Counted from the stretch's first letter, positions 19,891-35,879 are shown. The stretch is 36,921 nucleotides of DNA from Acidobacteriota bacterium (GCA_013698055.1 JACCVS010000755.1:1-36921), one strand, 5' to 3'. The notes: a model not told the origin generated them from the sequence alone. Made by a program: numbers and translations.

Positions 19891-21726
19891 ATGCCTTTTG
19901 AGCTGACACAACTTATTCCGGTAGCATCTTCGCTGGCGCTGGCGCTTATTCTGACGCCAATTATACGAAGACTGGCACGCTGGCGGGGCATTATCGCTCG
20001 TCCGAACACTGATCGTTGGCACAAGAAGCCGACCGCGATGCTCGGCGGTATCGCAATTTTTTTATCGGTCACTTCCGTCATTCTCATCTATCTGCTCTTA
20101 ATACCGCCCGGGGCGGACGAAATTCAGCATCATAGTCGCCCTTATCTCTGGGTAGTGCTGGGAGCCAGCTCCTTCCTTTTCGCGGTTGGTTTGGCTGATG
20201 ATCTGTTTCAAGCCAAGCCCTATCAGAAATTGATCGGGCAGGTGATGGGGGCGGCGTTCGTTATCTACTATGGCTTGACTCTGCCGTGGACAGGGTCTGC
20301 GACAATTAACATGGTGATTACGATTTTCTGGTTAATCGGCATCACCAACGCCGTCAACCTGCTCGACAACATGGACGGGTTGGCCGCGGGGATTGCGGCG
20401 ATCTCGTCCATCTTTTTGGCGGTCAATTTCCTGATCGGTTCCCAGCCGACGGAAGCCTTAGTGCTAGCCGTCTTCGCCGCCGCTCTGATCGGTTTTCTCG
20501 TTTACAACTCGAACCCGGCCTCAATTTTCATGGGCGACTGCGGTTCAATGTTCATCGGGTTCTTCCTGGCGAGTGCGTCGTTGGTGAGCATGGCCGGGGG
20601 GCGCTCGCGCAGCTTTCTGCCCGTCCTCGCCGTGCCGATTATGGTTCTCCTCATTCCGATCTTCGACACGACGTTCGTCACGATTCTGAGAAAGCTTTCG
20701 GGCCGGGCCGCATCGCAAGGCGGGCGTGATCACACGTCGCACAGGCTGGTGGCGCTCGGCATGTCCGAGCGTCGAGCCGTCTGGATGCTCTACGCGTTTG
20801 CGGCGCTTTCGGGTCTGCTGGCAATGCTGGTGCGCGAGATGAATCTCGACGTCAGTCTCGCCGTCATCATCGGGTTCACGATACTGCTCACGCTGCTGGG
20901 GGTTTACCTGGCGGGCGTTAAGGTTTACGACGAAGAAGAAGTCAAGGCTGCGCGTGACAAGCCCTTGTTCGCTTTCCTGATTGACCTCTCTTACAAGCGC
21001 CGCGTCTTCGAGGTCTTGCTAGACCTCGTCCTGATCGTTCTCGCCTATTACGGAGCTTATCTCCTCCGTTTCGGCTCGATAGAAGAGAGCAGGACATGGT
21101 CAATATTCCTGCGCACGCTGCCCGTGCTGCTGTTTGTCAAGATGGGGGCGTTCCTCGTGATGGGCGTCTACCGTGGCATCTGGCGCTACACGAGCATTGA
21201 TGATCTGGTGGTCTTTGCCAAGGCCGTAGTCGTCGGGTCAATCGCGAGCGTGATGGCGATTCTCTTTGCCTTCCGCTTTGAAGGCGTCTCGCGCACGGTC
21301 TTCTTTCTCGACGCGATGATAATGTTGATGCTGCTAGCCGGAAGCCGGATGGCCTTTCGCCTGTTCCGGCAGATTCTCCCGGCGCAGATGCAGCGCAAGG
21401 GTTGCCGCGTGTTGATTTACGGCGCGGGTGACGCGGGCGAGCTGTTATTGCGTGAGCTACTTAACAACCGTGAGCTACGATATGCGCCCATCGGTTTTGT
21501 GGACGACGACCCGAACAAGAAGGGCAAAGTCATTCACGGCCTGCGTGTCTTTGGCGGCAACGGTATGCTCCGCAGCGTGTGCCGGGAGCACCGCGTTGAG
21601 GAAGTGCTCATCTCCAGCTCACGCTTCTCTGATGAGCACATAGCACAGATTATGAGCGATTGCGAGGCCGAGCAGATTTCTCTCAAGCAGATGCGTATCA
21701 GAATCGAGAATATCAGTGGCCTCTGA
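19891..21726 (+). CDS. Polyprenyl-phosphate N-acetylhexosamine-1-phosphate transferase (WecA/MraY family) fused to a CapD/WbaP-type 4-TM plus Rossmann-like (CoA_binding_3-like) module
   Basis: N-terminal half: LADDL (aa 101-105), NAVNLLDNMDGLAAG (aa 153-167, nt 20347-20391), SIFMGDCGS, IFDTTFVTILR and GGRDHTSHRL. C-terminal half (about aa 362-611): LLRFG, GVYRGIWRYTSIDDL, then RVLIYGAGDAGELLLREL ... IGFVDDDPNKKGKVIHGLRVFG (nt 21406 onward). Confidence 0.85.
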   Translation: MPFELTQLIPVASSLALALILTPIIRRLARWRGIIARPNTDRWHKKPTAMLGGIAIFLSVTSVILIYLLLIPPGADEIQHHSRPYLWVVLGASSFLFAVGLADDLFQAKPYQKLIGQVMGAAFVIYYGLTLPWTGSATINMVITIFWLIGITNAVNLLDNMDGLAAGIAAISSIFLAVNFLIGSQPTEALVLAVFAAALIGFLVYNSNPASIFMGDCGSMFIGFFLASASLVSMAGGRSRSFLPVLAVPIMVLLIPIFDTTFVTILRKLSGRAASQGGRDHTSHRLVALGMSERRAVWMLYAFAALSGLLAMLVREMNLDVSLAVIIGFTILLTLLGVYLAGVKVYDEEEVKAARDKPLFAFLIDLSYKRRVFEVLLDLVLIVLAYYGAYLLRFGSIEESRTWSIFLRTLPVLLFVKMGAFLVMGVYRGIWRYTSIDDLVVFAKAVVVGSIASVMAILFAFRFEGVSRTVFFLDAMIMLMLLAGSRMAFRLFRQILPAQMQRKGCRVLIYGAGDAGELLLRELLNNRELRYAPIGFVDDDPNKKGKVIHGLRVFGGNGMLRSVCREHRVEEVLISSSRFSDEHIAQIMSDCEAEQISLKQMRIRIENISGL

Positions 21727-21729
21727 TAA

Positions 21730-23148
21730 GTGACGAGCAAAGACGTTTTTAACTTGTCACTCGTCATCTGTCACAGTCTTAAAGTGTCTCAATCAACATC
21801 CGATCAACTGAAGCTGATAGATGTGCGCAAGCCGCTCTTGCGCGCGTTGCTCGTCGTGCCGGTCTTGCTGGCGCTGCTCTTTTCCTGGTACGCGACCCGC
21901 TGGTACATGGGCAACTTCGTGGCGGAGTTTGCGCCGAGGATGCAGGAGGGGCAGCTCGATGCCGCACTGGCTGCGATGCGTCTTGCGCCCGACGACCCCT
22001 GGACACATGGGGCTGTGGCAAGCCTGAAGAAGGGGAGCCTGTTGCCGGAGGAACTGGCCGACGCCGTGCATCACTATGAAGAGGCCGTCAGACTCTCGCC
22101 CAACGACTATCGTTTCTGGCTGGAATTAGGTCGGGCGCGAGAACAGTCGGGTGACTCGGCAGGCGGTGAGAAGGCCTTGCGGCGTGCCGTCGAACTTGCC
22201 CCGTCTTATGCTTACCCTCGCTGGCATCTGGGGAATCTGCTGCTCCGCGCGGGGCGCGGCGAAGAGGCCTTCGCAGAGTTGCGGCGCGCCTCTGATGCGG
22301 CCTCGACGCTGCGACCACAGATGTTCAACGTCGCATGGTCGCTGTACGGCCAGAATATTGATGAGATAAAAAGGGCGGTCGGCGATTCCGCCGCGACGCG
22401 CGCCGAGTTTGCGATTTATCTGGTGGGGCGGGCGCGCCCGGACGATGCTCTGGCTCTCTGGTCTAGCTTACAGCCTGCCGAGAAGAGGGCGCAGCGCGAG
22501 GCAGGCGAAGCCATTATGAAGAGCCTGCTAGCGCAGAAGCGTTATCGCGCAGCCGTCAGCATTCTAAGCGACCTTAGTACTGAAGGGGCTTCGCCCAAAG
22601 CCGCGCAATTCATCAACGGCGGTTTTGAAGAAGACATTAACACCTCCGGCACTAACGTTTTTAGCTGGCAGATCAAGTCTGATCCGCAGGCGCAGATAGT
22701 CATTGACGGGAGTACCAGGCACAGCGGCGCGCGCAGTCTGCGGATTCTTTTCAAGGTCTCCTCTTCGCTTTCTTTCAACAACATTGCACAGCTTGTTTCG
22801 GTCGAGCCTTCCGCCCAGTACCGTTTTGAATGCTACGTTCGGGCGGAAGATTTGAAGAGCGCGGGAACGCCCGCGATAGAGATCGTAGACGCCACGGATG
22901 GCACGACGGTACTGGCCGTCCTGCCGCCAATTCCCGTCGGCACGTATGACTGGCAGCCGGTCGCAATAAATTTCAAGACGCCGCCGCAAACGGAGGCGGT
23001 CACGGTGCGTATCGTCCGCTCGACGTGCAGCGCGGACGCTGTCTGCCCAATTTTTGGCATGGTCTGGTATGACGACTTCAATCTCCAACATGTCGGCGGG
23101 GCAGCCAGCCCACGGGACAGTCGCGGCGCAACCAAAGCCCGCACCTGA
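21730..23148 (+). CDS. Membrane-anchored TPR-repeat protein with C-terminal carbohydrate-binding-module-like (CBM4_9/jelly-roll) domain
   Basis: Has one N-terminal hydrophobic helix (LLRALLVVPVLLALLF), TPR-like repeats (YEEAVRLSPNDYRFWLELGRA ... ALRRAVELAPSYAYPRWHLGNLL), then FINGGFEE ... W ... HSGARSLRI ... YRFECYVRAEDL. The start is uncertain (GTG 21730 or GTG 21823). Confidence 0.65.
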   Translation: MTSKDVFNLSLVICHSLKVSQSTSDQLKLIDVRKPLLRALLVVPVLLALLFSWYATRWYMGNFVAEFAPRMQEGQLDAALAAMRLAPDDPWTHGAVASLKKGSLLPEELADAVHHYEEAVRLSPNDYRFWLELGRAREQSGDSAGGEKALRRAVELAPSYAYPRWHLGNLLLRAGRGEEAFAELRRASDAASTLRPQMFNVAWSLYGQNIDEIKRAVGDSAATRAEFAIYLVGRARPDDALALWSSLQPAEKRAQREAGEAIMKSLLAQKRYRAAVSILSDLSTEGASPKAAQFINGGFEEDINTSGTNVFSWQIKSDPQAQIVIDGSTRHSGARSLRILFKVSSSLSFNNIAQLVSVEPSAQYRFECYVRAEDLKSAGTPAIEIVDATDGTTVLAVLPPIPVGTYDWQPVAINFKTPPQTEAVTVRIVRSTCSADAVCPIFGMVWYDDFNLQHVGGAASPRDSRGATKART

Positions 23149-24601
23149 TCGCTCCGCGCTGGTCGAACCGGTGCGGACGCTGGCAAGCCGCTTCATCATC
23201 GTGATGCTCTGCATCGCGATAATTCTCTCTGCCCTCCTTTACGGCACGGTTCACTACTGGTCGCTAGCCGTTTTCGAGATCGGCGCGTGCGCCATCATTC
23301 TCCTGTGGGTCGTAGACGCATGGCGCAGCCGCACGCTGCGCCTCAGCCGCAGCCCTTTACAATGGCCGCTCATCGGCCTGCTCTTGATTGGCCTCGTGCA
23401 GCTTCTTCCACTGCGCAGCCCTGCGGACGCCGGCGCGCTCTCGTCCCCACCCGTCAGCAGTCTTTCGCTTGATCCGTACTCGACACGCCTCGCGCTCGTA
23501 CAAATTCTCGCGCTTCTCATCTATTTTGCCGCCGCACTGGTCTTCATTGACAGCCCGAAGCGTTTGCGCCTAATAGTGCGAATCGTCACCATCTTCGGTT
23601 TCCTGCTGGCGCTCCTCGGCCTCATTCAGTCTTTCACCAGCCCGGATAAAATCTACTGGCTGAAAGAGCTGCCGCAGAGCATTCCGTTCGGCCCCTTCTA
23701 CAACCGCCATCACTTCGCGGCCTACATGGAACTCGCCCTGGCTCTGCCGCTCGGCCTGCTCCTTTCAGGCGCAATCGAACCCGACAAACGCCCGCTCTAT
23801 ATCTTCGCGGTCGTCTTGATGGGGATCGCCCTGATCATGACAGGTTCGCGCGGCGCAATGATTAGCTTCGTGGCCGAAGCGGCCTTTCTGGTAATCTTCG
23901 CCAGCTTCGTGCCAGGAGAAGGGGCCAGGCAAAGGGGGGAGAAAAGAGGACGCATCGGCGCAACGTTCAAGCGCGTGGCGCTGGCGCTGGCGCTCGTGCT
24001 CGCGCTCTTTGGTGGGGCGGTGTTGTTCGGGGGCGGGGCGGCTTTGAGCAGGTTGGTCGGGACGGTCAATTCCGATGATCCGACGACGGGGCGCGCGCAT
24101 TTCTGGGGCGCGACGCTCGATATCATACGCGCCCACCCGCTCACGGGCAGCGGGCTTGGCTCTTACGGGCTGGCTTACACACAGTATGATTCGCGCAACG
24201 GATTACTTCGTCTCGAGCAGGCGCACAACGATTACTTGCAGTTGATGTCGGACGCCGGAATTATCGGTGTCGGGCTGGGGGTCTTCTTCATCGTCGCGCT
24301 TTTTCGGACGGGCTTCGCGCGCCGGGAGACGGAAGACCCCTTCAGGCGCGGTGTGGCCACGGGCGCACTCGCCGGGTGCTTTGCCGTACTCGTTCACAGC
24401 TTCTTTGACTTTACGCTGCACACGACGGCGAACGCACTGCTGTTTCTAATGCTGGCGACGTTTGCGACCATCAATGGGCAGGTTGAACAGACCTCCGGGT
24501 CCCGCCGTCATCATCGCCGTCGCCGCCGCAGGTCAATAAAGCAGCCCGACGTTCCTGACACTTACGAGGCCACAAGGGTCCCACAGTCACACAGCCGGTA
24601 G
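23054..24601 (+). CDS. O-antigen ligase/polymerase family (Wzy_C domain) polytopic membrane protein
   Basis: Has at least 10 hydrophobic segments and the signature LEQAHNDYLQLMSDAGIIGVGL. The C-terminal tail is polybasic (RRHHRRRRRR). The start is uncertain: ATG 23054 or 23090 overlap the upstream gene, while GTG 23171 and ATG 23204 do not. Confidence 0.8.
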   Translation: MAWSGMTTSISNMSAGQPAHGTVAAQPKPAPDRSALVEPVRTLASRFIIVMLCIAIILSALLYGTVHYWSLAVFEIGACAIILLWVVDAWRSRTLRLSRSPLQWPLIGLLLIGLVQLLPLRSPADAGALSSPPVSSLSLDPYSTRLALVQILALLIYFAAALVFIDSPKRLRLIVRIVTIFGFLLALLGLIQSFTSPDKIYWLKELPQSIPFGPFYNRHHFAAYMELALALPLGLLLSGAIEPDKRPLYIFAVVLMGIALIMTGSRGAMISFVAEAAFLVIFASFVPGEGARQRGEKRGRIGATFKRVALALALVLALFGGAVLFGGGAALSRLVGTVNSDDPTTGRAHFWGATLDIIRAHPLTGSGLGSYGLAYTQYDSRNGLLRLEQAHNDYLQLMSDAGIIGVGLGVFFIVALFRTGFARRETEDPFRRGVATGALAGCFAVLVHSFFDFTLHTTANALLFLMLATFATINGQVEQTSGSRRHHRRRRRRSIKQPDVPDTYEATRVPQSHSR

Positions 24602-24613: not shown

Positions 24614-25783
24614 ATGAAGAAGAGTTTCTTACAAGTCGTGGTCTGTCCTCTGTGCCGGGGAACGCTCCGCTGCGAGAGTTTCCAGGAGACTGAGGGAGGA
24701 GAGATCGAGAGCGGTCTCATCACCTGCGGGTGCGGAGCGAGCTATCCGCTCATCGGAGGTATCCCACGCCTGCTCCCGCCCGCGCTGCAAAGTATGCTAT
24801 GGGAAATGCATCCCGAGTTTTTCCGCGCTTACGGGGCGCGACTGCCCGCAGAGTTGCTGCCGGATGAAGAGAAGCACGCCGACAAGTCGGACAGTGATGG
24901 CGCGACGAAAGCTCAGCGCGACACGGCGCGCAGCTTCGGCTATGAGTGGCAGGCATTTTCCGAGATGCTCCCCGATTACGAATCGAACTTTCGCTGGTAC
25001 TTCGAGCGCTTCGCGCCCGGCTCCTTTGCGGGCAAGCGGATTCTCGACGCCGGTTGTGGCACGGGACGCCACACCTTTCATATGGCACGCAGCGGGGCGC
25101 ACGAAGTTGTGGCGATGGATTTCAGCCAGGCCATAGAAGTCGCCGCGCGCAACAACAGCGAGAATCAGAACACGCATTTCGTCCAAGCGGACATTTATCA
25201 CCCGCCGTTTCCGCCGGACAGTTTCGATTTCGTTTACAGCCTCGGCGTGCTGCATCACTTGCCCGACCCGGAAAAGGGATTCCGCACGTTGCTGCCGCTA
25301 CTGCGCGCTGGCGGTTACATGAACATTTATCTCTACTGGAATCTGGAAAGCGAAGCGGCGTGGCGGCGCGCGGCGCTCTCGGTTATTACGCAAACGCGAC
25401 GCATCACAACGCGCCTACCCCACACCCTGCTCAAGAAGGTGTCATGGTTGATCGCCGCCGCCTTTCAAGGAGCATTCGTCCTTCCGGCACGCGCGCTCGA
25501 CAAGTTCAAGGTGACGCGCCCGCTCGCCGACCGGGTACCTCTCGGACATTATCGCAAGTATTCGTTCCGCGTGCTTTACACGGATCAGTTCGACCGCTTC
25601 TCTGCGCCGATTGAGAATCGCTATAGCCGCGCGGATGTTGCAAAGTGGTTTGAGAAGGAAGGGATTGAGGATACTGTAATTCTCGGCGGTGCCGGGTGGC
25701 GCGCATCCGGCAAGCGTGCAATCGGAATTCAAAGCGATGAAAACGCTGCCGCCGCGCCGGTAAAGGCTGCCAAACTTGATTGA
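24614..25783 (+). CDS. Trm112-like zinc-ribbon domain fused to class I SAM-dependent methyltransferase
   Basis: Has VVCPLCRGTL ... CGCGASYPLIGGIPRLLP (Trm112-type ribbon), then ILDAGCGTGRH (motif I), FDFVYSLGVLHHL and LRAGGYMNI. Confidence 0.8.
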   Translation: MKKSFLQVVVCPLCRGTLRCESFQETEGGEIESGLITCGCGASYPLIGGIPRLLPPALQSMLWEMHPEFFRAYGARLPAELLPDEEKHADKSDSDGATKAQRDTARSFGYEWQAFSEMLPDYESNFRWYFERFAPGSFAGKRILDAGCGTGRHTFHMARSGAHEVVAMDFSQAIEVAARNNSENQNTHFVQADIYHPPFPPDSFDFVYSLGVLHHLPDPEKGFRTLLPLLRAGGYMNIYLYWNLESEAAWRRAALSVITQTRRITTRLPHTLLKKVSWLIAAAFQGAFVLPARALDKFKVTRPLADRVPLGHYRKYSFRVLYTDQFDRFSAPIENRYSRADVAKWFEKEGIEDTVILGGAGWRASGKRAIGIQSDENAAAAPVKAAKLD

Positions 25784-27275
25784 AACGGAAACACCTGCCG
25801 CGCTCTCGCCAGAGGGGACAAGGCCTGTGGGTCACGAAACCGAGGCGGCCACTTCCCCGCGCCTTTCGCGCCGCCTTGCTTCGGTGGTCTGGATGACTGG
25901 CCTCGGTTCGGTGGCGACGATGGCTGTAAGCACGCTTGCTAGTGTCGCCGTCGCGCGCAACGGCGGCCCCGCTGGTTATGCCACTTTTATCACCGCTAAT
26001 ATGTTGATTTTCGTTACGGCGGTGCTGTCCTCGTGCGGTTTGCCCGTTGCCTTAGCTAAATATGTCGCCCGCGAGGAAGAAAGGGGGCATCACGAAGCGC
26101 TCAGACAATCATGCACAACAACATTCATTTTAATGCTCCTGTCCGCGCTTGTTGCTGGCGTTGTGGTGAGTCTCAATTTATCACGCCTGGAACAGTATCT
26201 TAATGTTTCAATCGGAGACGGCTTTGCTCTTGCTTTTCCGATCATCCTGCTGTGCGCGGCGACCTCTGATTGCGTTCAGGGAATTTACTCCGGCCTGCTA
26301 CGCCCGCGCTCTATGATTGCTATTACGGTGGCCGGGCCACTGGCAATGATATTTTACATATTGGTTCGCCGGGGTGGCGCGCCCTTGCCTCTGTGGGGAG
26401 CGGTGGCCGCATCTTATATCTGCTCCGGTGTGGTAGCGGGCTACAAGTCGTGGCGCGATAAACTGCTAGGCGCGCCCGCATTAATCAGCGAAATTCGACC
26501 GATCTTAAAAGATATTGCGCCGGCAGCCACCTTCACTTTCTTTACAATCTTTTCTACCTGGAGCGACCGCTGGATCGTCGGAACACAGTTGGGAGCGATT
26601 GCGATGGGATCATATACTGCTGCTGTCTTGGTGATTCAGGCAGTATTGCGTGTGCCCACTCATATCGGATACCTGCTTGTGCCCGCATCCACTAGAATGG
26701 CTTTGGGGGGAGTAGAAAGGATCAGAAAATTCAACAATATTATGATTGGCATTTTCGGTATTTTCTCAGCATTAATGATGGTCGTGATAATGCTTGCGCC
26801 AACGACCATTGTGAGATTGCTCTTTGGCCCAGGGTTTTCGTTGGCCGCGCCAACCCTGTTGATTATGGCGTTGGGTCTGATGGCCTCCGCTGTCAGTATT
26901 CCTTTCATCTCGGCGCTGACCGGGTCAACGAAAAATCGCCTGGTGATCTGGTTACTTGCACTGACGCTGCTGCCCCGCATCCTGCTCCTTCTATTTTTCA
27001 CCCGGCGCTGGAGTCTCCTGGGCACTGCTTTAGCCACGGTGTTGGCCGACTATCTGCTGGCCTTATGTTGCCTCCTTTTAGCCCACAAAATCGGTATAGG
27101 CTTCCCTCTGTTTCCTTTGTTGCGATCTTACCTGATTGGCGCGCTCATTCTCATTGCAGGCCTCGGAGCGCTATTGCTCAATGTTCCTCAATTGGTTGTG
27201 GTTGCTCTGGCTATCGCCGCTTTCACGCCAGCTTTATGGCAAGCGGCGCGATCCATATATGAGTCAAGCGATTGA
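25776..27275 (+). CDS. wzx: Wzx-like oligosaccharide flippase (MOP superfamily polysaccharide biosynthesis protein)
   Basis: Has about 12-14 hydrophobic segments over 499 aa, with size and topology typical of Wzx, and sits next to Wzy_C and glycosyltransferase genes. The TTG start at 25776 is uncertain (alternative GTG 25827). Confidence 0.65.
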   Translation: MIETETPAALSPEGTRPVGHETEAATSPRLSRRLASVVWMTGLGSVATMAVSTLASVAVARNGGPAGYATFITANMLIFVTAVLSSCGLPVALAKYVAREEERGHHEALRQSCTTTFILMLLSALVAGVVVSLNLSRLEQYLNVSIGDGFALAFPIILLCAATSDCVQGIYSGLLRPRSMIAITVAGPLAMIFYILVRRGGAPLPLWGAVAASYICSGVVAGYKSWRDKLLGAPALISEIRPILKDIAPAATFTFFTIFSTWSDRWIVGTQLGAIAMGSYTAAVLVIQAVLRVPTHIGYLLVPASTRMALGGVERIRKFNNIMIGIFGIFSALMMVVIMLAPTTIVRLLFGPGFSLAAPTLLIMALGLMASAVSIPFISALTGSTKNRLVIWLLALTLLPRILLLLFFTRRWSLLGTALATVLADYLLALCCLLLAHKIGIGFPLFPLLRSYLIGALILIAGLGALLLNVPQLVVVALAIAAFTPALWQAARSIYESSD

Positions 27276-27478
27276 TGGGCAATGCCCACACATCTCCTCT
27301 TGCTATTGCAACTTGGGATAAGTTCATTAGACGGATCAGGCTGGCAAAAGCATTTATTGACATGCACCGAACCTTTCAACTACAGTTTGAACGAAGTCCA
27401 GTCTGCGCCGATTGCTACAATATGAAGCGTTACATCAACGGTGACATAGTTAGTCCTCTTATCGTCTCTAATGATTAG
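27275..27478 (+). CDS. Hypothetical small protein (67 aa) exactly filling the wzx-to-glycosyltransferase gap
   Basis: The ATG at 27275 shares one nt with the wzx TGA (27273-27275). The TAG at 27476-27478 overlaps the downstream ATG at 27471. The only open frame in the gap runs flush between both neighbours. No recognisable motif apart from one CADC pair. Confidence 0.3.
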   Translation: MGNAHTSPLAIATWDKFIRRIRLAKAFIDMHRTFQLQFERSPVCADCYNMKRYINGDIVSPLIVSND

Positions 27479-28739
27479 TGGTCAAGATATAGTATGTATT
27501 GCCAGCATCGAATGGGACTTCTTGTGGCAGGGCCATCAGGAAATCAATTTGCGGTTGGCGCAAGCTGGAAACCGCGTCCTTTACATTGAAAATACAGGAG
27601 TGCGCTCGCCCGGACTCAGAGATGCGGGACGCATCTTAAAACGGCTTAGACGATGGATAAAGTCACTCCGCTCGAGCGGTGTGCGTCAGGTAGCGCCTAA
27701 TATCTATGTTTGCTCACCACTTGTCTTGCCTCCCTTGGGATCAGGCTGGCAACGTCAAATCAACCGGCGGCTACTGTTGCCGTTCGTGCGCCGCACGGCG
27801 CGTCGCTTAGGAATGGTTGACCCGTTGCTGTGGACATATTTACCGACCGACACGGCAGTTGAGATTATCAATCTGTTACGAATGCCCCGTAGTGTGGTCG
27901 TTTATTATTGTATTGCTGATTTCTCACAATTGACGCCGCGAGTTCACCAGTTGCGGCAAAGCGAACAGGCAATCCTTAAAGCGAGCGATCTGATCTTCGC
28001 GCAGGGGCCCGAATTGGCCGATCATTGTCTGCAATGGAACGATAATGTCCATATCTTTCCCTTCGGCGTGAATCTCGATGCCTTTCCTTTAGAGGATGGC
28101 ATTGAAGGCGAACATCGCTCGGATCATGCTCCAACCAAGTCACCATCAGTATTCTTAAAATCTCTTTCCCGGCCCATCATCGGTTATGTCGGAGGACTAC
28201 ACCGGCATGTGGATTTCGATTTATTAGTAGCGATGGCTCGTTCTCGCCCCGCCTGGTCATGGGTGTTTGTAGGCACGATTCAAACTGCCGTAGGCGAGTT
28301 GTCCGCCCTGCCCAACGTGCGGTTACTGGGCCAGAAACCACACTATGAATTGGTGAATTACATTCGCGCCTTCGACGCCTGCATCGTCCCTTATATGAGC
28401 AGCATCTATACTGATACTGTAGTGCCAACCAAGATCAATGAGTATCTGGCGGTCGGCAAGCCGGTTATTTCGACGGAACTCCCCGCCGTGTGTGATTTCA
28501 ATCAACGATATAATATTTTACAAACAACTCCCGCCGAGCCGGAGAGATTTCTTCAAGCTATCGAACAAGCACTCCAGATGCCGACAGATGAAGCAACGAT
28601 TATACAGCGCCGCACCGTAGCCGAGTTGGGTGATTGGACAGATCGCGTTGAGGTCATGAGCCGGTTGATTGAGAGCGAACTAGAAGCAAAAGAGATTCGG
28701 GAAAAGAAGCCCCGGTCAAAGGCCATTGCGGAGGCTTAA
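27471..28739 (+). CDS. Glycosyltransferase, GT-B fold (group 1, TuaH-like)
   Basis: Has DIVCIASIEWDFLWQGHQEINLRLAQAGNRVLYIEN at the N-terminus and PTKINEYLAVGKPVISTELP at the C-terminus. Confidence 0.75.
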   Translation: MISGQDIVCIASIEWDFLWQGHQEINLRLAQAGNRVLYIENTGVRSPGLRDAGRILKRLRRWIKSLRSSGVRQVAPNIYVCSPLVLPPLGSGWQRQINRRLLLPFVRRTARRLGMVDPLLWTYLPTDTAVEIINLLRMPRSVVVYYCIADFSQLTPRVHQLRQSEQAILKASDLIFAQGPELADHCLQWNDNVHIFPFGVNLDAFPLEDGIEGEHRSDHAPTKSPSVFLKSLSRPIIGYVGGLHRHVDFDLLVAMARSRPAWSWVFVGTIQTAVGELSALPNVRLLGQKPHYELVNYIRAFDACIVPYMSSIYTDTVVPTKINEYLAVGKPVISTELPAVCDFNQRYNILQTTPAEPERFLQAIEQALQMPTDEATIIQRRTVAELGDWTDRVEVMSRLIESELEAKEIREKKPRSKAIAEA

Positions 28740-28796: not shown

Positions 28797-29579
28797 TTGT
28801 CAAAGCAGGAATCAAAGATGTTGCTTCGGACTGAGGTGCTGGCCCATCGCCTTAAAAGTGCTATCAAAAGAGTTCTTCCACCAACTCTTTACCGCCCTAT
28901 CCTAACTCGTTTGAGAGGGACGAAACCGATTCCAGCAGATCTTTTGGCTCTGCTCAATCCCGTCAGCCGATTGCATGGTCTTGACCGGGGACTACCGATA
29001 GATCGCTACTACGTAGAGAAATTTCTCAGTGCCCACGCGCGCGATATACGGGGCCACACTTTAGAAATGGGTGATCCAAGGTACACGCATCAATTTGGCG
29101 GAGATCGTGTCTCTCATTCAGATGTGCTCCACTTCGTTCCTGGAAACCCGGAAGCAACAATAGTCGGCGACCTTACGTCAGAAACTCCTCTTCCACCAGA
29201 TACTTTTGATTGCCTAATCGTAATCAATACGTTTCTGCTCATTTATGATATTCGATCTGCGTTGAGGAATTGTTATCGCGCTCTTAAAGGAGAAGGTGTG
29301 CTGTTAGCACACTTTCCAGGTATCTGTCCGAGAATCCCTTATGGCCCGGCATGGACTGGCGACTACTGGCGCTTCACCTCAACTTCTGTCCGCCAACTAT
29401 GCGAAGAGTTCTTTCCGGCGAAAGATATAGAGATTGAATCTTATGGGAATGTACGCACTGCAACGGCTTTCCTCTATGGTTTGTCGGCGGAGGACTTGTT
29501 GCCTGCGGAATTGGATTACCATGATCGTGACTATGAGATGCTCATCACTGTTCGAGCTGTGAAGCATAAAGAGAAGTAG
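28797..29579 (+). CDS. Putative class I methyltransferase-like protein (divergent motif I)
   Basis: Has HTLEMGDPRY in the motif I position, IVGDL and FDCLIVINTFLLIYD in the motif II/III positions, and LKGEGVLL. AAGGAG lies 11 nt before the TTG start. A truncated paralog is present at 32146-32556 (minus strand). Confidence 0.55.
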   Translation: MSKQESKMLLRTEVLAHRLKSAIKRVLPPTLYRPILTRLRGTKPIPADLLALLNPVSRLHGLDRGLPIDRYYVEKFLSAHARDIRGHTLEMGDPRYTHQFGGDRVSHSDVLHFVPGNPEATIVGDLTSETPLPPDTFDCLIVINTFLLIYDIRSALRNCYRALKGEGVLLAHFPGICPRIPYGPAWTGDYWRFTSTSVRQLCEEFFPAKDIEIESYGNVRTATAFLYGLSAEDLLPAELDYHDRDYEMLITVRAVKHKEK

Positions 29580-30619
29580 TGAAAGTTACTCCAATAGTCA
29601 ATTGGGAGATTTTTCCACAGACCGGCCAGCGGAACGACTGGGATCGGCTGCTCTTAGAGAGCCAGGATTACAATGTCTTTCAATCCTATGGTTGGGGTGA
29701 ATACAAGCGCACCTTGAATTGGGTACCCATCCGCTGGATAGCAAGAAATAGGGGCGGGGCGGTGGCAGCAGTAGCTCAAATCTTGACCAGAAAGCTTCCG
29801 GGTGGCAGCAGTGTTGGATGGTCACCGGGCGGGCCTATCCTGATGTTTCCACAGACTCCAAGCCGTGATTTGGCGTCAATTATCGAATTACTATTGCGGC
29901 AAATCAAAGCGCAAAACAGCAAGGCGTGTGTTCGCTTCAACTGCTACCTCCCGCATCATGCAGGTCTGACTTATGCTTTTAGTCGGTCATGTGTGCGACC
30001 CCTTCTTAGTCTGACCACAGGGTATTCCGTTTGTCTGGATTTGGGGACTTCTTTGGCTCCGCTTGTTGGACAGATGAAGGCCAAGCATCAAGCTTATATT
30101 AAGAAGGCTTTGAGCTATCCGATTGAATGGAAGACCGGGCGTGACTCTCATTTCGTGCAGGAGTTCGTTAAACTTCATCATGAGATGACGATGGATAAGA
30201 GCCTTTCGTCATACCGCGCCAGTGCGCCCGAGATTTCCGCCTTATGTAAGCACCTCGATGAGCAAGCTATCATTTTTACAGGCTACTTTGATGGCGAGGC
30301 TCTCACCTCTTATCTGATCGTCCTCTGCGGTCAAAAGGCTTTCACCGTGATGGCAGCGACAGGGCGCAAGGGCAGAGAAATTGGAGCCTCTTACGGGGTG
30401 TTAGTTCAGTTGTTAGATTATCTGATAAACAGAGGCATCACGCAGTTTGATCTAGGAGGCTTAGACCCGCGAACCCCTGGGACGGAGGGGTCAAACCATT
30501 TTAAGAGAGGCTTCGGAGGGAAATTCGTAGAATATGTCGGAGAGTGGGAATGGTCTAGCACGGAGTGGGTGCGTTGGGTCACGAATTTCGCCATCTGGTT
30601 CCGGGGCAAGCGATTATGA
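29579..30619 (+). CDS. FemAB-fold / GNAT (Acetyltransf_6-like) transferase
   Basis: Has FQSYGWGEYK near the N-terminus and FDLGGLDPRTPGTEGSNHFKRGFGG near the C-terminus, both typical of Fem-family and BioF2-like proteins. The GTG start shares one nt with the upstream TAG (TAGTG). Confidence 0.75.
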   Translation: MKVTPIVNWEIFPQTGQRNDWDRLLLESQDYNVFQSYGWGEYKRTLNWVPIRWIARNRGGAVAAVAQILTRKLPGGSSVGWSPGGPILMFPQTPSRDLASIIELLLRQIKAQNSKACVRFNCYLPHHAGLTYAFSRSCVRPLLSLTTGYSVCLDLGTSLAPLVGQMKAKHQAYIKKALSYPIEWKTGRDSHFVQEFVKLHHEMTMDKSLSSYRASAPEISALCKHLDEQAIIFTGYFDGEALTSYLIVLCGQKAFTVMAATGRKGREIGASYGVLVQLLDYLINRGITQFDLGGLDPRTPGTEGSNHFKRGFGGKFVEYVGEWEWSSTEWVRWVTNFAIWFRGKRL

Positions 30620-31395
30620 GATGGAAGAGAGCCATCGCCAGAACTATCTCCGAGATTTCTGCGCTACAGAGAGGCCAGAGCGCGCCTCGCTCCGGTTTTC
30701 GCATCATGCTCTATCAGGCCGTCGGCTCGCCTCTCTCGCGTGATCCATACGGGATCAGCATTAAGCCGGAGCTGTTCGAGCGCCACATGAAAATTTTAGC
30801 CCAGAACACCGACGCTCATCTTGTCCCCTTCGCTGATGGCTGCGCAGTTGATTCTGCCTTTCGTGTGGCAGTAACTTTCGATGATGGGTACAGGGATAAT
30901 CTGCACACGGCAGCGCCAGTTCTGCTGAAATTTCGTATTCCTTTTACTGTGTTCGTCGTCTCTTCTTTTCTCAAGCAGCAAGATTCCGATTACCTGACTC
31001 CATCCGAGTTAAGGGAGTTAGCCGCTCTTCCCGGCGCGACCATCGGCTCGCACGGAGCGACGCATCTACAGCTCGCCAAATGCGACGATGCTACGCTGTG
31101 GCGAGAACTGCACGAGAGCAAGTGTGAGATTGAAGACATGCTCGGAGTCCCCGTCACGGGGATTGCTTATCCGCACGGCTCTGTGGATTTACGGGTGCGC
31201 GATGCAACCGCGCGCGCCGGTTATCTAACGGGCGGGTGCAGCCGGTTTGACATCAACGATCAGAGCCGCGATCCTCTTCTGCTCTCTCGCCGTGAAGTGG
31301 TGGCTGCGGATTCCGAAAGGACTTTCCTGCAAAAGCTGTATGGCGCGTGGGATTGGTATCGCTGGCGGATGCCAGACCCTGCGCGCGCCGAATAA
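30616..31395 (+). CDS. Polysaccharide deacetylase (CE4 / NodB-homology domain), copy 1
   Basis: Has VAVTFDDGY (TFDDG), GSHGATH (H-x3-H) and IAYPHG. The ATG at 30616 forms an ATGA overlap with the upstream stop and aligns with the paralog N-terminus (MRWKRAIARTISE versus WGWKRFAARAIAE). The ORF-track start at 30565 was rejected. Confidence 0.85.
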   Translation: MRWKRAIARTISEISALQRGQSAPRSGFRIMLYQAVGSPLSRDPYGISIKPELFERHMKILAQNTDAHLVPFADGCAVDSAFRVAVTFDDGYRDNLHTAAPVLLKFRIPFTVFVVSSFLKQQDSDYLTPSELRELAALPGATIGSHGATHLQLAKCDDATLWRELHESKCEIEDMLGVPVTGIAYPHGSVDLRVRDATARAGYLTGGCSRFDINDQSRDPLLLSRREVVAADSERTFLQKLYGAWDWYRWRMPDPARAE

Positions 31396-31517: not shown

Positions 31518-32160
31518 TTAAAGCGATTCTACGTCGAGCATTGCTGGAATCCCGGCCCGCTCCGGCTTTCGTTGATACGCTATACCTGCCGACCATCTCT
31601 GGGCGGGCAGTTCTACCAACTGATACAGCAAATAGGCGCTGAGGATAGTTGCTCCCAGCGCAATTACGTACACAGAGAGTCTTCCGGCGATGCCGTGTAC
31701 TCTGTGCAGAGAGAAGTCGAGAATTGCGCTCCCTACGCTGGCATGCATGAGATAAATCGAATAGGAAATCTTCCCGAAGAATTTGAACGGGCCTCCACTC
31801 GTGTTAAGGAACGCGATGGCTAAAGCTGTGGCGAGTCCGGCCATTGTTATCGCCGGGCCGAGACTCACCAGCAGGCACACCGTCAGGAGAGCAACTGCAC
31901 ATAAAAAGGACTTTGCTGCAAGTAGCTTCTTCCGATATTGATAGGTGATGATTCCTAAGAGGAAAAGAAAGACATAGTGGCAGACGAACGCTTCGGAGGG
32001 GGTAAGCAGAAATGTTAAGCCCAGGCAAATGAGCGATATGTTTCTGACCAATCTCCGTCGGTTACTTATCAGTGGATACAAAAGCCCGATAGATAAATAG
32101 AACTGGAACTCGATTGCTAGTGTCCAGTAAACCGGAAGAATCCAGTCATAGCCGAAGAAA
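31518..32160 (-). pseudogene. 3-prime fragment of an acyltransferase-3 (OafA/WecH-like membrane O-acyltransferase) gene
   Basis: This frame reads FFGYDWILPVYWTLAIEFQFYL (WTLAIEFQFY at 32097-32126), then hydrophobic helices and ISYSIYLMHASV, corresponding to the middle and C-terminal parts of the family. There is no ATG, and an in-frame TGA sits at 32175-32177. The roughly 150-aa N-terminal part typical of the family is absent. Confidence 0.65.
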
Positions 32161-32556
32161 CTGGAAAGTTTGGGTCACGATCATGCAATCGAATGCTTCT
32201 GTGGGGATACCCTGCCCGGTGGCCAAGTCACCGACGAGAGTGGCCTGCGGATTACCGGGGATGACGTGCAACACCTCTGAGCGGGTCACACGGTCGCCGC
32301 CGAACATGCGCGTATACTGCGGGTCTAAGATTTCAAACACCCGTCCCTGGATATCGGCGCTATGGCTTTGCAGAAAGGCGTCGATGTAGTAGCGATCAAG
32401 ACAACGCCCGCGATCCAGACCATAGAGACGGCTAATCGGCGTCAAGCGCCGGAGGTTGGCCCAATCAATCGCTTTGCGCCGCCGCCACCAAATGCGGAGA
32501 GGCCGGTAGATTGCCGGTGGCACGATCTTCTTAATTGTGTTCTTTAACTCGGGCAA
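32146..32556 (-). pseudogene. 5-prime fragment (136 codons) of a methyltransferase-like gene, paralog of 28797-29579
   Basis: It aligns by eye along aa 19-150 of the 260-aa paralog, for example RLYGLDRGRCLDRYYIDAFL versus RLHGLDRGLPIDRYYVEKFL, and FDCMIVTQTFQF versus FDCLIVINTFLL. It stops 3 codons after the last aligned block, so the C-terminal 110 or so aa are missing. Confidence 0.7.
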
Positions 32557-32798: not shown

Positions 32799-33578
32799 AT
32801 GTCATGGGGATGGAAAAGATTTGCCGCGAGAGCAATCGCCGAGGCTTCGGCTTTGACCGGAAGGGGCCGAGTACGCCCCGGCTACCGCGTCCTCCTGTAC
32901 CATGCGGTGGGGTCGCGACTCGCGCGAGACCCTTATGGAATCAGCATCGAGCCGAAATTGTTTGAGCGCCAGATGGAGGCTTTAGCCCGAAACTCACAAT
33001 TCAGCGTTGCCAGCTTTCACGCTCCCCAGTCATCACACGCGCAACTTCAGGTTGCCGTGACCTTCGATGACGGTTACAGGGATAATCTATACACGGCGGC
33101 TCCCATTCTTCTCAAATTTAAGATCCCCTTTACCGTCTTCGTGACCTCATCATTTATTCGGAGCCAGTCAGACGACTTCCTGACACCCGCCGAGCTGAGA
33201 GAATTAGCCTCTTTGCCGGGCGTGACCGTCGGGTCGCACGGGGCGACGCATCTCCCGCTCGACAAGTGTGACGATTCAACTCTCTGGCAAGAGCTGTATG
33301 AGAGCCGATGTTATATTGAAGATGTGACCGGGACTACGGTGAGAGCAATAGCCTACCCTCATGGTTCCGTCACTTTGCGGGTGCGTGATGCGGCGCAGCG
33401 AGCCGGTTATGTCATCGGAGGTTGCAGCCGATTCGATATTAACGATGAAGACCGCGATCCTCTTTTATTGTGTCGCTGCGAAGTGGTCGCGGCAGACTCC
33501 GAAAGGGTCTTCCAGCAAAAATTACGTGGGGCTTGGGATTGGTATAGACTGCGCGCCAAAGACCCCGCAGCCGGATGA
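32799..33578 (+). CDS. Polysaccharide deacetylase (CE4 / NodB-homology domain), copy 2
   Basis: Has VAVTFDDGY, GSHGATH and IAYPHG. It is collinear along its whole length with copy 1 (about two thirds of residues identical by eye). Confidence 0.85.
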   Translation: MSWGWKRFAARAIAEASALTGRGRVRPGYRVLLYHAVGSRLARDPYGISIEPKLFERQMEALARNSQFSVASFHAPQSSHAQLQVAVTFDDGYRDNLYTAAPILLKFKIPFTVFVTSSFIRSQSDDFLTPAELRELASLPGVTVGSHGATHLPLDKCDDSTLWQELYESRCYIEDVTGTTVRAIAYPHGSVTLRVRDAAQRAGYVIGGCSRFDINDEDRDPLLLCRCEVVAADSERVFQQKLRGAWDWYRLRAKDPAAG

Positions 33579-33638: not shown

Positions 33639-34478
33639 ATGACTATGGGTAAGCTTGCCAGTCTAGGTAAAAGTTTTCACAGGCTTTGGTCGGTGCGGCG
33701 GCGATATCTTAACTCGCGCGACTGGCTCTACAGCTTTTATCACCGGATTCTCCTGCGTTTTCCGCGGCTACCGCTCCCGGAGCGAAATCATCTGCGCCAG
33801 GTGCGGCTGACAGAGGTGCGCGAGCCGTTTCATGTTCGTCTCGGCACAACAGACTGGTACGTCCTGGAAGAGATTTTCATTGATGGGGTGTATCAGCCGT
33901 TAATCAAGCTGCAAATCAAAGATGTCCGCCATATCGTCGATCTCGGAGCCAACTCTGGTTTTTCTATCCGCTTGTGGCAACTCAGCTACCCAACAGCTTG
34001 CGTGATAGGCGTCGAGCCGGATGCGGAGAATCTAGAGATGTGTCTCCGCAACGCATTAACTGGAACGACGGATGATCAATTAAAGTTAGTGCAAGCTTGC
34101 GTGGCGGGCAGGAGCCGCGCGGTTTCGCTGGAGCGGTCACGAGGAGCCTGGGAATTCAGAATGCAAGAGCCTGATCAGGCCGGTCAGGAATCCATCCGGG
34201 CGATAACGATGTCTCAACTCCTGGCCGAATGTAGAGTCGAAAGCCCGATTGACGTTTTAAAGTGCGATATTGAAGGAGCTGAATCTGAAGTCTTTGCGGA
34301 TTGCGGCGCGTGGATTCATCAGGTACGGAATCTGATCATCGAGTTACACCCGCCCTATTCATCCGAGCAGTTCTTAGCAGACTTGAGCCGGGGAGGAGCG
34401 CGGTTCGAGTTGTACTGCCGCACGCCCTGTGAGGGTGGCTCCGAGCTGTTATTTCTCCAACAAGCTGAGTTGAAATAA
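33639..34478 (+). CDS. FkbM-family methyltransferase
   Basis: Has IVDLGANSGFS and DVLKCDIEGAESEVF, both characteristic FkbM motifs. Confidence 0.85.
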   Translation: MTMGKLASLGKSFHRLWSVRRRYLNSRDWLYSFYHRILLRFPRLPLPERNHLRQVRLTEVREPFHVRLGTTDWYVLEEIFIDGVYQPLIKLQIKDVRHIVDLGANSGFSIRLWQLSYPTACVIGVEPDAENLEMCLRNALTGTTDDQLKLVQACVAGRSRAVSLERSRGAWEFRMQEPDQAGQESIRAITMSQLLAECRVESPIDVLKCDIEGAESEVFADCGAWIHQVRNLIIELHPPYSSEQFLADLSRGGARFELYCRTPCEGGSELLFLQQAELK

Positions 34479-34487: not shown

Positions 34488-35879
34488 TCAGGCTGCCACC
34501 TCCGATCTCCTCTTTGATGACCAGAGAGAGTAGGCTTGCACCGCCCCCTCGGCTCCGAGGATGATGAGGAGCATCCAGAAGACATAGCGCATTCTGTAGA
34601 GCGCGCCGATATTAATGACGACGAGCCCGAGGGCGATGACGCCGACCCCGGCGGCCAGCGCCAGCAGCCACGCCGACCAACAACGCCGACGTTGCCATAA
34701 ACCTAAAATGGCCAGTAGTTCGACGACGTATATCACAAAGGTTTCCAGCCCGCAGAGTAATCTTCCCGTCAGCCCCGTCTGAGGTCCGGCGACAAACCAC
34801 ATGTTCGGGAAGGGTGAGAAGAAACCGATGGCAGCGGCCCGCGGCAGGTAGCGCAGAATGTCTCCCATATTGGAGAACTCTATCTCCTTATCAATGTTCG
34901 AGCCGGCGTTAGGATAGCTCGTAATAAAACCGTGTCGCAATTGATTAATCCGGGCGGGCAAACTCGAGCCCGGCGAAATCGCCTGACCTTCGGCGACAGC
35001 AATCGTTTGGTCTGGCTGAACAGTAACCGGAGAGGCTCCATCTGTGTTTGACGTGGCGACGGAACTTTGACTGAGGAGATCATTACGGGCCTCAACGATT
35101 GCCCACACTCGCGGAAGGCTAATGATGATTGCCAGTAACAAAGCGGCGCTGATCAAATTCCCGACTAGAAACCGCTTTTCGTAGAATTGCCTGGCTATCA
35201 ATAGACAGATGGCCAGCAGCGTCATCGTTAGCACGACTTCCCACATCTCTCTCCTTAAAAACCATAGCAGCCATGCCACGGCTCCGCCCGCAACTCCGGA
35301 GGCCAGGCCCTTCGGCCATGAATAATCTCTCGTCAGCCAGCAGGCGTAGATCAACACCAAGCCCAACACGGCAGCGATAAAGAGAGGGTCTCTAAAGAGC
35401 TGTGTCGTGTGCAACAGAAATGACGGCCACAGTCCGACCATTCCGGCGGCGAGCAGGCCGACCCGCCGGTCGAACACTTCGCAGCCCAATTTGAAAACGA
35501 GAGACAAAATCAAGAGGTAATAAAGCAGGTTCAATGGCTCGGCGCTTAAAATGTTGTAACCCAGCCACGGCCCCAGGACGGCGAAAGAAAGTGAATATAT
35601 TTTGAGGTGGAATGGATTAACAAGAAAGTTAGAAGATGCCGAGAGCCAAGCCATTAACCCCTGTTGAAAGAGCGTGTCAATGAGCGAGATCACCTCGCCA
35701 CGATAAGCTATGCAATCAGCCGCGAATAAAAGTCCAAACCCGTTGCCGTCGAAGACACCTGGAAGAAGCGCGAATCGTCCAATCAAATAAATGACCACTG
35801 TTAACGTGACATGCAGGGCAGCAGCCGCCATCAGCAGATGCACCGGCTTTACTCGTCGGCCAAGTTCTTGGCTCATCAT
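34488..35879 (-). CDS. Polytopic inner-membrane protein, paralog of 11929-13281 (candidate GT-C-type glycosyltransferase/polymerase)
   Basis: Has about 11-13 hydrophobic segments. It shares WPSFLLHTTQLFRDPLFI, FSPFPNMW and INIGALYRMRYV with the plus-strand paralog. It has a Ser/Thr/Pro-rich central loop. This is the only intact minus-strand gene in the locus. Confidence 0.5.
   Translation of the reverse strand: MMSQELGRRVKPVHLLMAAAALHVTLTVVIYLIGRFALLPGVFDGNGFGLLFAADCIAYRGEVISLIDTLFQQGLMAWLSASSNFLVNPFHLKIYSLSFAVLGPWLGYNILSAEPLNLLYYLLILSLVFKLGCEVFDRRVGLLAAGMVGLWPSFLLHTTQLFRDPLFIAAVLGLVLIYACWLTRDYSWPKGLASGVAGGAVAWLLWFLRREMWEVVLTMTLLAICLLIARQFYEKRFLVGNLISAALLLAIIISLPRVWAIVEARNDLLSQSSVATSNTDGASPVTVQPDQTIAVAEGQAISPGSSLPARINQLRHGFITSYPNAGSNIDKEIEFSNMGDILRYLPRAAAIGFFSPFPNMWFVAGPQTGLTGRLLCGLETFVIYVVELLAILGLWQRRRCWSAWLLALAAGVGVIALGLVVINIGALYRMRYVFWMLLIILGAEGAVQAYSLWSSKRRSEVAA

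Follow-up and report, generated by a model that had tools for sequence, protein, structure and literature searches.

What reaction is carried out by three genes that overlap end to end within a polysaccharide locus, and that encode a methyltransferase-like (MT-like) protein, a FemX-like transferase and a homologue of CE4-family deacetylases? The question is raised by a stretch of 36,921 nucleotides from an Acidobacteriota bacterium (GCA_013698055.1, JACCVS010000755.1:1-36921; hereafter the window, 36.9 kb), an uncultured metagenomic organism for which all evidence is genomic. An initial annotation of its triad at 28797-31395 had suggested that the three proteins deacetylate an amino sugar, re-acylate or aminoacylate the freed amine and methylate the result, as a decoration of a polysaccharide rather than of peptidoglycan. 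The setting bears out the latter point. Nearly all genes of the window lie on the + strand, and our Pfam scan of 30 window open reading frames (ORFs), 10 of which were also scanned against NCBIfam, identified a large polysaccharide biosynthesis locus of the Wzx/Wzy type, with a WecA-like initiating transferase, a Wzy_C protein and a Wzx flippase as its assembly line, many glycosyltransferases (GT) of families GT1, GT2 and GT4, at least six methyltransferases, and AsnB-like amidotransferase, RmlA-like, cupin and epimerase genes. Our answer, which is tentative and falls somewhat short of probable, is that the triad belongs to a cytoplasmic amino-sugar N-tailoring cassette of a Wzx/Wzy-dependent heteropolysaccharide, combining de-N-acetylation, methylation and tRNA-dependent aminoacylation. 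It keeps the folds, families, cytoplasmic setting and Fem-CE4 linkage of the earlier interpretation, and departs from it on the triad as the core unit and on the activity of the CE4 protein within it.

The triad lies on the + strand at the 3' side of the window and consists of the MT-like gene (28797..29579), whose product has a class I methyltransferase fold, the gene of a 346-aa FemX-like tandem-GNAT transferase (29579..30619; hereafter the Fem-like protein), and the gene of a 259-aa homologue of PplD/PgaB-type polysaccharide deacetylases (30616..31395; hereafter CE4a). As the annotation had described, the genes are joined by overlapping codons (TAG/GTG at 29577-29581): the TAG of the MT-like gene (29577-29579) overlaps the GTG start of the Fem-like gene (29579-29581), and an ATGA at 30616-30619 joins the latter to CE4a. 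Overlapping start and stop codons are frequent in operons, and what is beyond chance here is the conservation of the gene arrangement rather than the overlaps. For the MT-like protein, a start at ATG 28818 (253 aa) appears more likely than one at TTG 28797, because independent calls in two public assemblies give 253 aa and because the N-termini of homologues align there. The third ORF is open from 30565 or 30616 to 31395; homologues match it from the first residue counted from ATG 30616, which we take as its start. Two further assemblies, NCBI GCA_020063805.1 and one from Logan, contain this DNA with 0-2 mismatches, and hence the triad did not arise through misassembly of the window. No protein of the triad contains a transmembrane or signal segment (maximum Kyte-Doolittle hydropathy over 19 residues, KD19, <1.6), and all three look cytoplasmic by this measure.

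We found the middle protein to be closely related in structure to FemX. It carries all the Fem motifs that had been quoted for it (FQSYGWGEYK, residues 34-43; FDLGG, 290-294; FKRGFGG, 308-314), just as the quoted CE4 motifs are present in the translation of the third ORF, and it exceeded the cutoffs of Pfam FemAB PF02388 (48.1 bits, cutoff 24, with an aligned part of residues 240-326 only) and PF13480 Acetyltransf_6 (24.3 bits, cutoff 22). A profile of its family matched SaFemX (2e-23) and Weissella FemX (FemX_Wv; 1e-22) over the full length among PDB sequences. The AlphaFold2 (AF2) model was of high confidence (predicted local distance difference test, pLDDT, 92.9; predicted template-modelling score, pTM, 0.90) and displayed two tandem GNAT-like domains, i.e., the FemX fold, in line with the Fem/GNAT fold assumed for this ORF at the outset. 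In a Foldseek search the model's top match was FemX_Wv (1NE9; template-modelling (TM) scores 0.80/0.82, E 6.5e-23), followed in order by SaFemX, Sba18/Sbb17 (TM 0.66/0.78), FemA and MprF. Sba18 and Sbb17 are aminoacyl-tRNA-dependent peptide synthases whose structures were solved with the amino-sugar compound streptothrisamine. The close solved relatives (TM 0.66-0.82) all depend on aminoacyl-tRNA, while acyl-CoA-dependent tandem GNATs reached a TM of only ~0.54. We favor a tRNA donor since every biochemically characterized close structural relative uses aminoacyl-tRNA.

At the residue level, the pair F308-K309 is invariant in 33/33 family members and aligns with F304-K305 of FemX_Wv, while the nearly invariant K43 aligns with FemX_Wv K36. 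In FemX_Wv, F304 stacks on A76, K305 stabilizes the transition state, and K36 contacts the UDP phosphates. The coiled-coil helical arm, which the annotation had proposed as a marker of tRNA binding, is absent from the model, with no counterpart to SaFemX residues ~198-242; as FemX_Wv is armless too, this neither supports nor refutes the use of tRNA. We also considered an amphipathic C-terminal membrane helix, by analogy with HfsK, and rejected it, the C-terminal helix not being among the top hydrophobic-moment segments.

The Fem-like family proved to be large. Searching 5.8 billion proteins with the Fem-like sequence yielded 61 clusters, all of ~340 aa and with 63% identity at best, and an exhaustive profile search of 1.84 billion representatives recovered 1,103 clusters at E <= 1e-30 and 8,477 at E <= 1e-10. 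The resulting ~1,100 clusters at 50% identity are carried mostly by diderm phyla, including Acidobacteriota, Pseudomonadota, Chlorobiota, Nitrospirota, Elusimicrobiota, Omnitrophota and Planctomycetota. NCBIfam holds no equivalog for the family. A tblastn search of plasmids returned only two distant matches (26% identity) in unrelated contexts, one in a peptide ABC exporter locus and one in a purine/thiamine metabolism region. Several architectures in the family bear on its chemistry: six members are Fem-Fem fusions of ~700 aa (P0182, P0244, P0276, P0277, P0292 and P0300), one is a 643-aa GT2-Fem fusion (P0183), and two loci (L024 and L046) contain 2-3 tandem Fem genes. The fused and tandem Fem genes recall the stepwise action of FemX, FemA and FemB, and peptide building would fit them better than a single acyl transfer.

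Comparing gene neighborhoods, we found that the linkage between Fem and CE4 is the most conserved feature of these loci. A motif-based genome scan recovered 57 Fem loci, from Acidobacteriota, Pseudomonadota, Chlorobium, Nitrospirae, Elusimicrobia, Omnitrophota, Margulisiibacteriota, Planctomycetota and others, of which 39 had enough sequence for counting CE4 linkage and 44 for identifying the upstream gene. A CE4 homologue starts <=400 nt downstream of Fem in 24/39 independent loci and lies within ~6 kb in 32/39, and the linkage persists where Fem identity has fallen to 25-30%, consistent with a functional connection between the two proteins. Directly upstream of Fem, the commonest gene is a DegT-like aminotransferase, found in 21/44 loci and often overlapping Fem (DegT-upstream loci: L003, L007-L011, L015-L020, L023, L025, L035, L036, L038, L041, L043-L045 and L150). 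This DegT/DnrJ/EryC1-like protein is divergent and ~356 aa long, and retains a putative pyridoxal phosphate lysine in the one example that we read (L007, 'FSLRK'). By comparison, an MT-like gene occupies the upstream position in 4/44 loci, plus L149 and the window. A GT1 gene is found near Fem-CE4 in 8/44 family loci; the order GT1-MTlike-Fem-CE4 occurs in L001, L004 and L149 and, truncated, in L006 and L014, and the order Wzx-GT1(TuaH-like)-MTlike-Fem-CE4 is constant in the MT-like clade, its Wzx-GT1-MTlike-Fem part being seen in L001, L004, L006 and L014. In a neighbor-joining (NJ) tree, which is distance-based, lacks support values and serves as a rough guide only, the MTlike/Fem/CE4 loci (the window, L001, L149 and L006) are nested among DegT/Fem/CE4 loci, with L004 standing separately. 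The MT-like gene is thus a derived replacement in the upstream slot, restricted to a small clade. The module view of the initial annotation is hence upheld for the Fem-CE4 pair, the stable core, and not for the triad, which is one variant; family-wide, the core arrangement is DegT-like aminotransferase-Fem-CE4.

The third protein indeed belongs to the CE4 family, and the window contains a second such protein. A paralogue with 67% amino acid identity to CE4a, CE4b (32799..33578, + strand), starts 1.4 kb downstream of CE4a, and both matched PF01522 Polysacc_deac_1 (80.6 bits for CE4a and 82.8 bits for CE4b; cutoff 23.1). CE4a carries the motifs TFDDGY (residues 87-92), HGATH (146-150) and YPHG (185-188), and the best PDB sequence matches of the two proteins were 4V33, 4HD5 and 6DQ3 (PplD). 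In PplD, Zn is bound by D168, H223 and H227, D167 is held by R302, and His105 is the acid/base catalyst, with H105A and D167N being inactive in vivo (PMC8807736). Counting along the alignment to chain 6DQ3, we mapped His105 to the 'YH' motif and D167/D168 to TFDD. D89, D90, H146, H150 and R225 are invariant in a 20-sequence CE4 alignment, the first four corresponding to PplD D167, D168, H223 and H227 and R225 probably to R302. The catalytic His is present in 19/19 of the other aligned sequences, including CE4b and the nearest relative, from L149, while CE4a has Gln34 at this position, encoded by a CAG codon (30715-30717) that is also found in the two other assemblies. A relative-rate test between CE4a and CE4b did not detect significant acceleration (p 0.06-0.88), by which CE4a does not resemble a freely decaying pseudogene; it may be a substrate-binding pseudoenzyme, or the His-to-Gln change may be recent. 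In CE4a the metal triad and Asp are intact, but because of the Gln, the deacetylation that the annotation had assigned to the CE4 of the triad is, if it occurs, more likely performed by CE4b, which has the complete catalytic set including His34 and which we predict to be the likely active deacetylase of the window.

The region between the two CE4 genes appears scarred. It contains, on the - strand, a truncated Acyl_transf_3 (AT3) gene (31518..32081), a pseudogene remnant of which the C-terminal 187 aa are left (PF01757 positions 142-325/326; 30.1 bits, cutoff 31), and a truncated second MT-like copy (32146..32556) covering residues ~19-149, which was recognized by blastp/tblastn at 50% identity to the first copy and has no Pfam match. 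The relative L004 carries a full-length AT3 and assembly L064 the same AT3 fragment. The two remnants abut and apparently mark the point at which two copies of the cassette recombined or were joined by a deletion; a tblastn search of 31.4-32.8 kb for a second Fem remnant gave none at E <= 1. CE4b is closer than CE4a to the Fem-linked CE4 proteins of L001, L040 and L149. It is followed by an FkbM-family methyltransferase gene (33639..34478, + strand; Pfam, TIGR01444), and CE4 and FkbM genes are likewise adjacent in L040 and L149 and near each other in L001, FkbM being the ancestral downstream neighbor of the cassette CE4. As L149 has the order MTlike-Fem-CE4-FkbM with one CE4 only, the region was duplicated or recombined in the window lineage.

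For the first protein, 'methyltransferase-like' is the right level of claim. It matched Pfam Methyltransf_11 (28.6 bits, cutoff 21.2, E 2.3e-6) over residues 121-170 only, in its C-terminal half; the AF2 model (pLDDT 83) retrieved nearly exclusively class I methyltransferases among the top 50 Foldseek matches (E ~1e-9, TM 0.4-0.5), one being the methyltransferase-fold cyclase SpnF. Motif I of the family is non-canonical, reading LE(M/I)(G/A/K/E)(D/E)xxYT in place of the glycine-rich S-adenosylmethionine (SAM) loop (E/DxGxGxG), with only L89 and E90 invariant, and the later motifs VGDL and FDC are retained. The MT-like family is much larger than the Fem-like family (>1,274 matches) and associates with CE4 on its own. 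Three distant members that were picked at random (L066, L067 and L068) are followed by a CE4 gene that overlaps them by 4 nt or begins after a short gap, and they lack Fem; in a metagenome scan (loci within L066-L148), a CE4 gene directly follows the MT-like gene in 30/56 loci with enough downstream sequence, and Fem is present in only one. The CE4 proteins following MT-like genes share the signature TFDDGY..DN, H-x3-H, AYPxG and an N-terminal YH, plus an inserted segment. This partner is a 'long' CE4 (314-348 aa) in which the inserted segment, of ~80-100 aa, falls between TFDD and HxxxH, and the pairs lie in ABC-transporter-type (Wzm/Wzt) and other glycan loci lacking Fem; MT-like plus long CE4 appears to be a separate, widespread two-gene module. 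Since CE4 partners both the Fem-like and the MT-like families, it is their common hub, and the simplest reading would be that both proteins act on the CE4 product. Methylation of an already acylated product, as the annotation had pictured it, is less likely than methylation of the CE4 product, given the pairing of MT-like with CE4 in loci that lack Fem.

We thus propose the following route. A CE4 enzyme would remove the N-acetyl group from an N-acetylhexosamine of an undecaprenyl-diphosphate- (Und-PP-) or nucleotide-linked intermediate before flipping, a step that in this genome would most likely fall to CE4b, the Fem-coupled CE4a having lost its catalytic His. The MT-like protein would methylate the freed amine in a NodS-like role, acting on N rather than on O, and the FemX-like protein would acylate the amine, most probably with an amino acid from aminoacyl-tRNA. 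If the steps occur in this order and the sugar is a hexosamine, the product would be an N-aminoacyl (possibly N-methyl) hexosamine within the repeat unit. As the proteins and the aminoacyl-tRNA are both cytoplasmic, the chemistry would take place on nucleotide- or Und-PP-linked intermediates before Wzx flipping. The conserved K36 equivalent, the GT2-Fem fusion and the WecA-like enzyme would all suit an acceptor that is diphosphate-linked and is processed on the membrane assembly line. We found no aminotransferase among the scanned ORFs of the window or within 8 kb in L001 and L004, which leaves CE4 as the only local source of an amine. Extended to the whole family, the proposal would hold that Fem-like proteins use aminoacyl-tRNA to aminoacylate the amino sugars of Und-PP-linked polysaccharide repeat units, with acceptor amines unmasked by CE4 or installed by DegT, and with tandem or fused Fem proteins building short peptide stems. 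We consider this broader form somewhat unlikely.

Pairing a CE4 enzyme with a Fem-like protein is not new as a concept, and the annotation's expectation of undescribed chemistry is weakened accordingly: the idea is contained in the HfsH/HfsK proposal and in the logic of NodB/NodS/NodA, and related pairings are known from TIGR03006/TIGR03019 and from Orf11. In the holdfast of Caulobacter crescentus, the CE4 enzyme HfsH would expose amines for acylation by HfsK (CC3689), according to the proposal of Sprecher et al. 2017, who also described HfsK homologues and paralogues as modifiers of exopolysaccharide (EPS) that cluster with EPS genes in several phyla (PMC5362036). Like the window, this system combines a cytoplasmic CE4 with a Fem-like tandem GNAT on a Wzx/Wzy-type polysaccharide; unlike the overlapping genes studied here, hfsK is not adjacent to hfsH, and the window CE4 is not HfsH (18.3 bits against NF050820, cutoff 400). 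HfsK is a FemX-like effector of cyclic di-GMP, which binds to its C-terminal extension, and it is a protein that we liken to the Fem-like protein by description only, carrying over no mechanism. No Caulobacter locus was among those recovered by our motif-based genome scan. In rhizobia, NodB (CE4), NodS (a SAM-dependent N-methyltransferase) and NodA (an N-acyltransferase) perform cytoplasmic de-N-acetylation, N-methylation and N-acylation of GlcNAc in this order (PMC11681206). The three-activity logic is the one proposed here for the cassette, but only CE4 is homologous, and weakly so (26.9 bits against the NodB model, cutoff 240), no NodS or NodA Pfam match being found in the window ORFs. The Nod-factor substrate is a free chitooligosaccharide as opposed to a repeat-unit intermediate. 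NodA, moreover, is of an unrelated fold and uses acyl-acyl carrier protein (acyl-ACP).

The annotation had further linked the middle gene to the FemAB-related family of PEP-CTERM/exosortase loci. In PEP-CTERM/XrtA loci, adjacent members of TIGR03006 (CE4) and TIGR03019 (FemAB-related) are tabulated (PMC3684757), which resembles the adjacent CE4 and FemAB-like genes of the window, likewise in Gram-negative EPS loci; the order there is CE4 then Fem, whereas the window has Fem then CE4. The link did not hold up. Among the profiles put forward by the annotation, PF02388, PF13480 and PF01522 scored above their cutoffs but TIGR03019 did not (12.7 bits, E 0.048; cutoff 260.35); the window CE4 stayed below the TIGR03006 cutoff as well (14.7 bits, cutoff 276.2), and no exosortase family match was present among the Pfam/NCBIfam-scanned ORFs of the window, whose 36.9 kb would not cover a more distant exosortase gene. 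The peptidoglycan enzymes FemX_Wv and S. aureus FemXAB share the fold (TM 0.80-0.82) and, in the case of FemX_Wv, a similar length (346 versus 335 aa) and the lack of a coiled-coil arm, yet they are 17-19% identical to the Fem-like protein, R211 and D108 lack conserved equivalents, and the context is one of polysaccharide instead of peptidoglycan. That an amino sugar can be aminoacylated in the proposed way has a direct precedent in Orf11/Sba18/Sbb17: the streptothricin enzyme Orf11, of Fem fold, moves Gly from Gly-tRNA onto the amino-sugar amine of streptothrisamine (PMC12945691). There, the acceptor is a Streptomyces antibiotic intermediate, a CE4 or MT partner is lacking, and identity is 16-17%. 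The window CE4 proteins resemble PplD, PgaB and IcaB in the N-terminal YH with the catalytic His (Gln in CE4a), the absence of the motif 3 (MT3) Arg, and an Arg elsewhere that holds the Asp. PplD de-N-acetylates the linkage-unit GlcNAc (PMC8807736), and PplD, PgaB and IcaB act outside the cytoplasm, unlike the window proteins without signal or transmembrane segments. We found no characterized Fem-like enzyme acting on O-antigen, capsule or EPS in the literature searched. Hence, the window lineage is a third lineage of the CE4/FemAB theme, closer to true FemX than the PEP-CTERM and HfsK lineages. New are this separate lineage, the role of CE4 as a hub, the alternation of DegT and MT-like genes upstream, and the loss of the catalytic His in CE4a.

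Several observations weigh against the proposed tailoring route. FemX_Wv R211 and D108 have no conserved counterpart in the Fem-like family, and the use of tRNA has never been shown for Fem-like proteins of the HfsK type (PMC5362036). The non-canonical SAM loop makes the methyltransferase activity itself no more than putative, and the CE4 copy that is coupled to Fem is the one with Gln at the catalytic position. Finally, the commonest and ancestral upstream partner of Fem is the DegT-like aminotransferase, and the acceptor amine may therefore originally have come from a keto-sugar by transamination, in which case CE4 would serve another purpose.

The first of these points connects to an alternative that dispenses with tRNA, in which CE4 removes acetate and the Fem-like protein re-acylates the amine from acyl-CoA or acyl-ACP, for example with a hydroxyacyl or short acyl group. 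Such an N-acyl exchange, which would resemble NodB/NodA or LpxC/LpxD and has loosely been proposed for HfsK, explains the Fem-CE4 linkage equally well and sits comfortably with the PF13480 match and with the missing R211 and D108 equivalents; GNATs accept a variety of donors, and for HfsK its authors refrained from predicting one (PMC5362036). We nevertheless judge it unlikely, since the solved relatives at TM 0.66-0.82 all use aminoacyl-tRNA while acyl-CoA tandem GNATs lie at ~0.54, since the equivalent of the F304-K305 pair is invariant throughout the family alignment, and since fused and tandem Fem genes would suit stepwise peptide addition better.

The DegT association leads to a second alternative, namely that the activities are co-located but independent: the Fem-like protein would acylate an amino sugar whose amine comes from an aminotransferase, the ancestral DegT, encoded elsewhere in this genome, while CE4 and the MT-like protein would modify another residue, giving, e.g., a cationic or N-methyl glucosamine. 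The frequent position of DegT directly upstream of Fem, with the MT-like clade nested among such loci, is what this would predict, and in L150 the DegT gene follows NDP-sugar transferase, dehydratase, cupin/isomerase and epimerase genes as in an NDP-3/4-amino-6-deoxyhexose pathway, Fem taking the place of the N-acyltransferase. The widespread MT-like/CE4 pairs without Fem point in the same direction. Left unexplained, though, would be why CE4 remains with Fem in loci that also carry DegT (adjacent in 24/39 loci overall), and why DegT is absent from MT-clade loci, none being found in the window or in the flanks of L001, L004 and L149. We therefore rate independent action as distinctly unlikely. 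Least plausible by far, and rejected by us on gene context and equivalog score, is a role of the middle gene in building peptidoglycan interpeptide bridges, for which the name 'lipid II:glycine glycyltransferase' given to several family members by the JGI and NCBI pipelines speaks, as does a best NCBIfam match to FemX NF047883: that match is far below the equivalog cutoff (40 bits versus 500), the gene always lies within Wzx/Wzy/GT polysaccharide loci beside CE4, and its carriers are mostly diderm, making the name very unlikely to be correct in this polysaccharide context.

Returning to the surroundings of the proposed tailoring cassette, the genes directly upstream on the + strand encode a Wzx-type flippase (25776..27275; Pfam Polysacc_synt, 29 bits, with many hydrophobic windows) and a TuaH-like glycosyltransferase of the GT1 family (27471..28739; Pfam Glyco_trans_1_4 and Glycos_transf_1; NCBIfam TuaH at E 2e-31, below cutoff), the latter being possibly the first gene of the operon. 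A promoter and terminator scan of 25.5-34.8 kb returned site counts that were not above those of shuffled sequences, including a sole 10/12 promoter-like site at 27357-27386, and the scan thus leaves the operon ends undefined. Downstream, at 34488-35879 on the - strand, lies a gene for a 463-aa multi-pass membrane protein without a Pfam or NCBIfam match. A homologue with 37% identity is found on the opposite strand directly after CE4 in L004 and L005, with a partial match in L038, and the protein may be a partner of the cassette, e.g., a polymerase, ligase or transporter.

Other parts of the window display features of their own. At its start, 12-3419 encodes a CTP_transf_3 cytidylyltransferase, a D-2-hydroxyacid dehydrogenase and a 575-aa Capsule_synth-like protein, which hints at an acidic or ulosonic sugar component; a large protein like the latter lies beside an FkbM methyltransferase in L003. 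The 37 kb contain six methyltransferase-type genes (3491-4378, 5683-6501, 8705-9637, 24614-25783, 28797-29579 and 33639-34478), and such a number in one glycan locus suggests a heavily methylated polysaccharide. A 611-aa protein encoded at 19891-21726 is of unusual architecture, a WecA/MraY-type Glycos_transf_4 domain (residues 87-233) being followed by CoA_binding_3 (424-594), a domain that is usually N-terminal to Bac_transf or Polysacc_synt_2 domains. The longest ORF for Wzy_C (23054-24601) overlaps the preceding TPR/CBM_4_9 ORF (21730-23148) by 95 nt, and the real Wzy start probably lies downstream of the longest-ORF start.

In this genome the cassette looks partly decayed, judging by the lost His of CE4a and the two truncated genes beside it, and for that reason the window does not hold the best member for experimental study. 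FemAB-like genes beside CE4 have been noted for years in Gram-negative EPS loci without any assigned reaction. The finding that CE4 partners MT-like proteins, Fem-like proteins or both, and that Fem is also tied to a sugar aminotransferase, provides a sharper hypothesis. If the donor is not tRNA, the family would still represent a recurrent N-acyl-editing module that is mislabeled as 'lipid II:glycine glycyltransferase' by annotation pipelines. If the donor is aminoacyl-tRNA, the cassette would define a class of glycan decoration not described before and would add a further role of tRNA outside the ribosome. Should the broader form of the proposal be true, the role of FemAB-like genes in Gram-negative EPS loci would be explained, and peptide-branched or zwitterionic exopolysaccharides would constitute a widespread, hitherto unrecognized use of tRNA outside translation.

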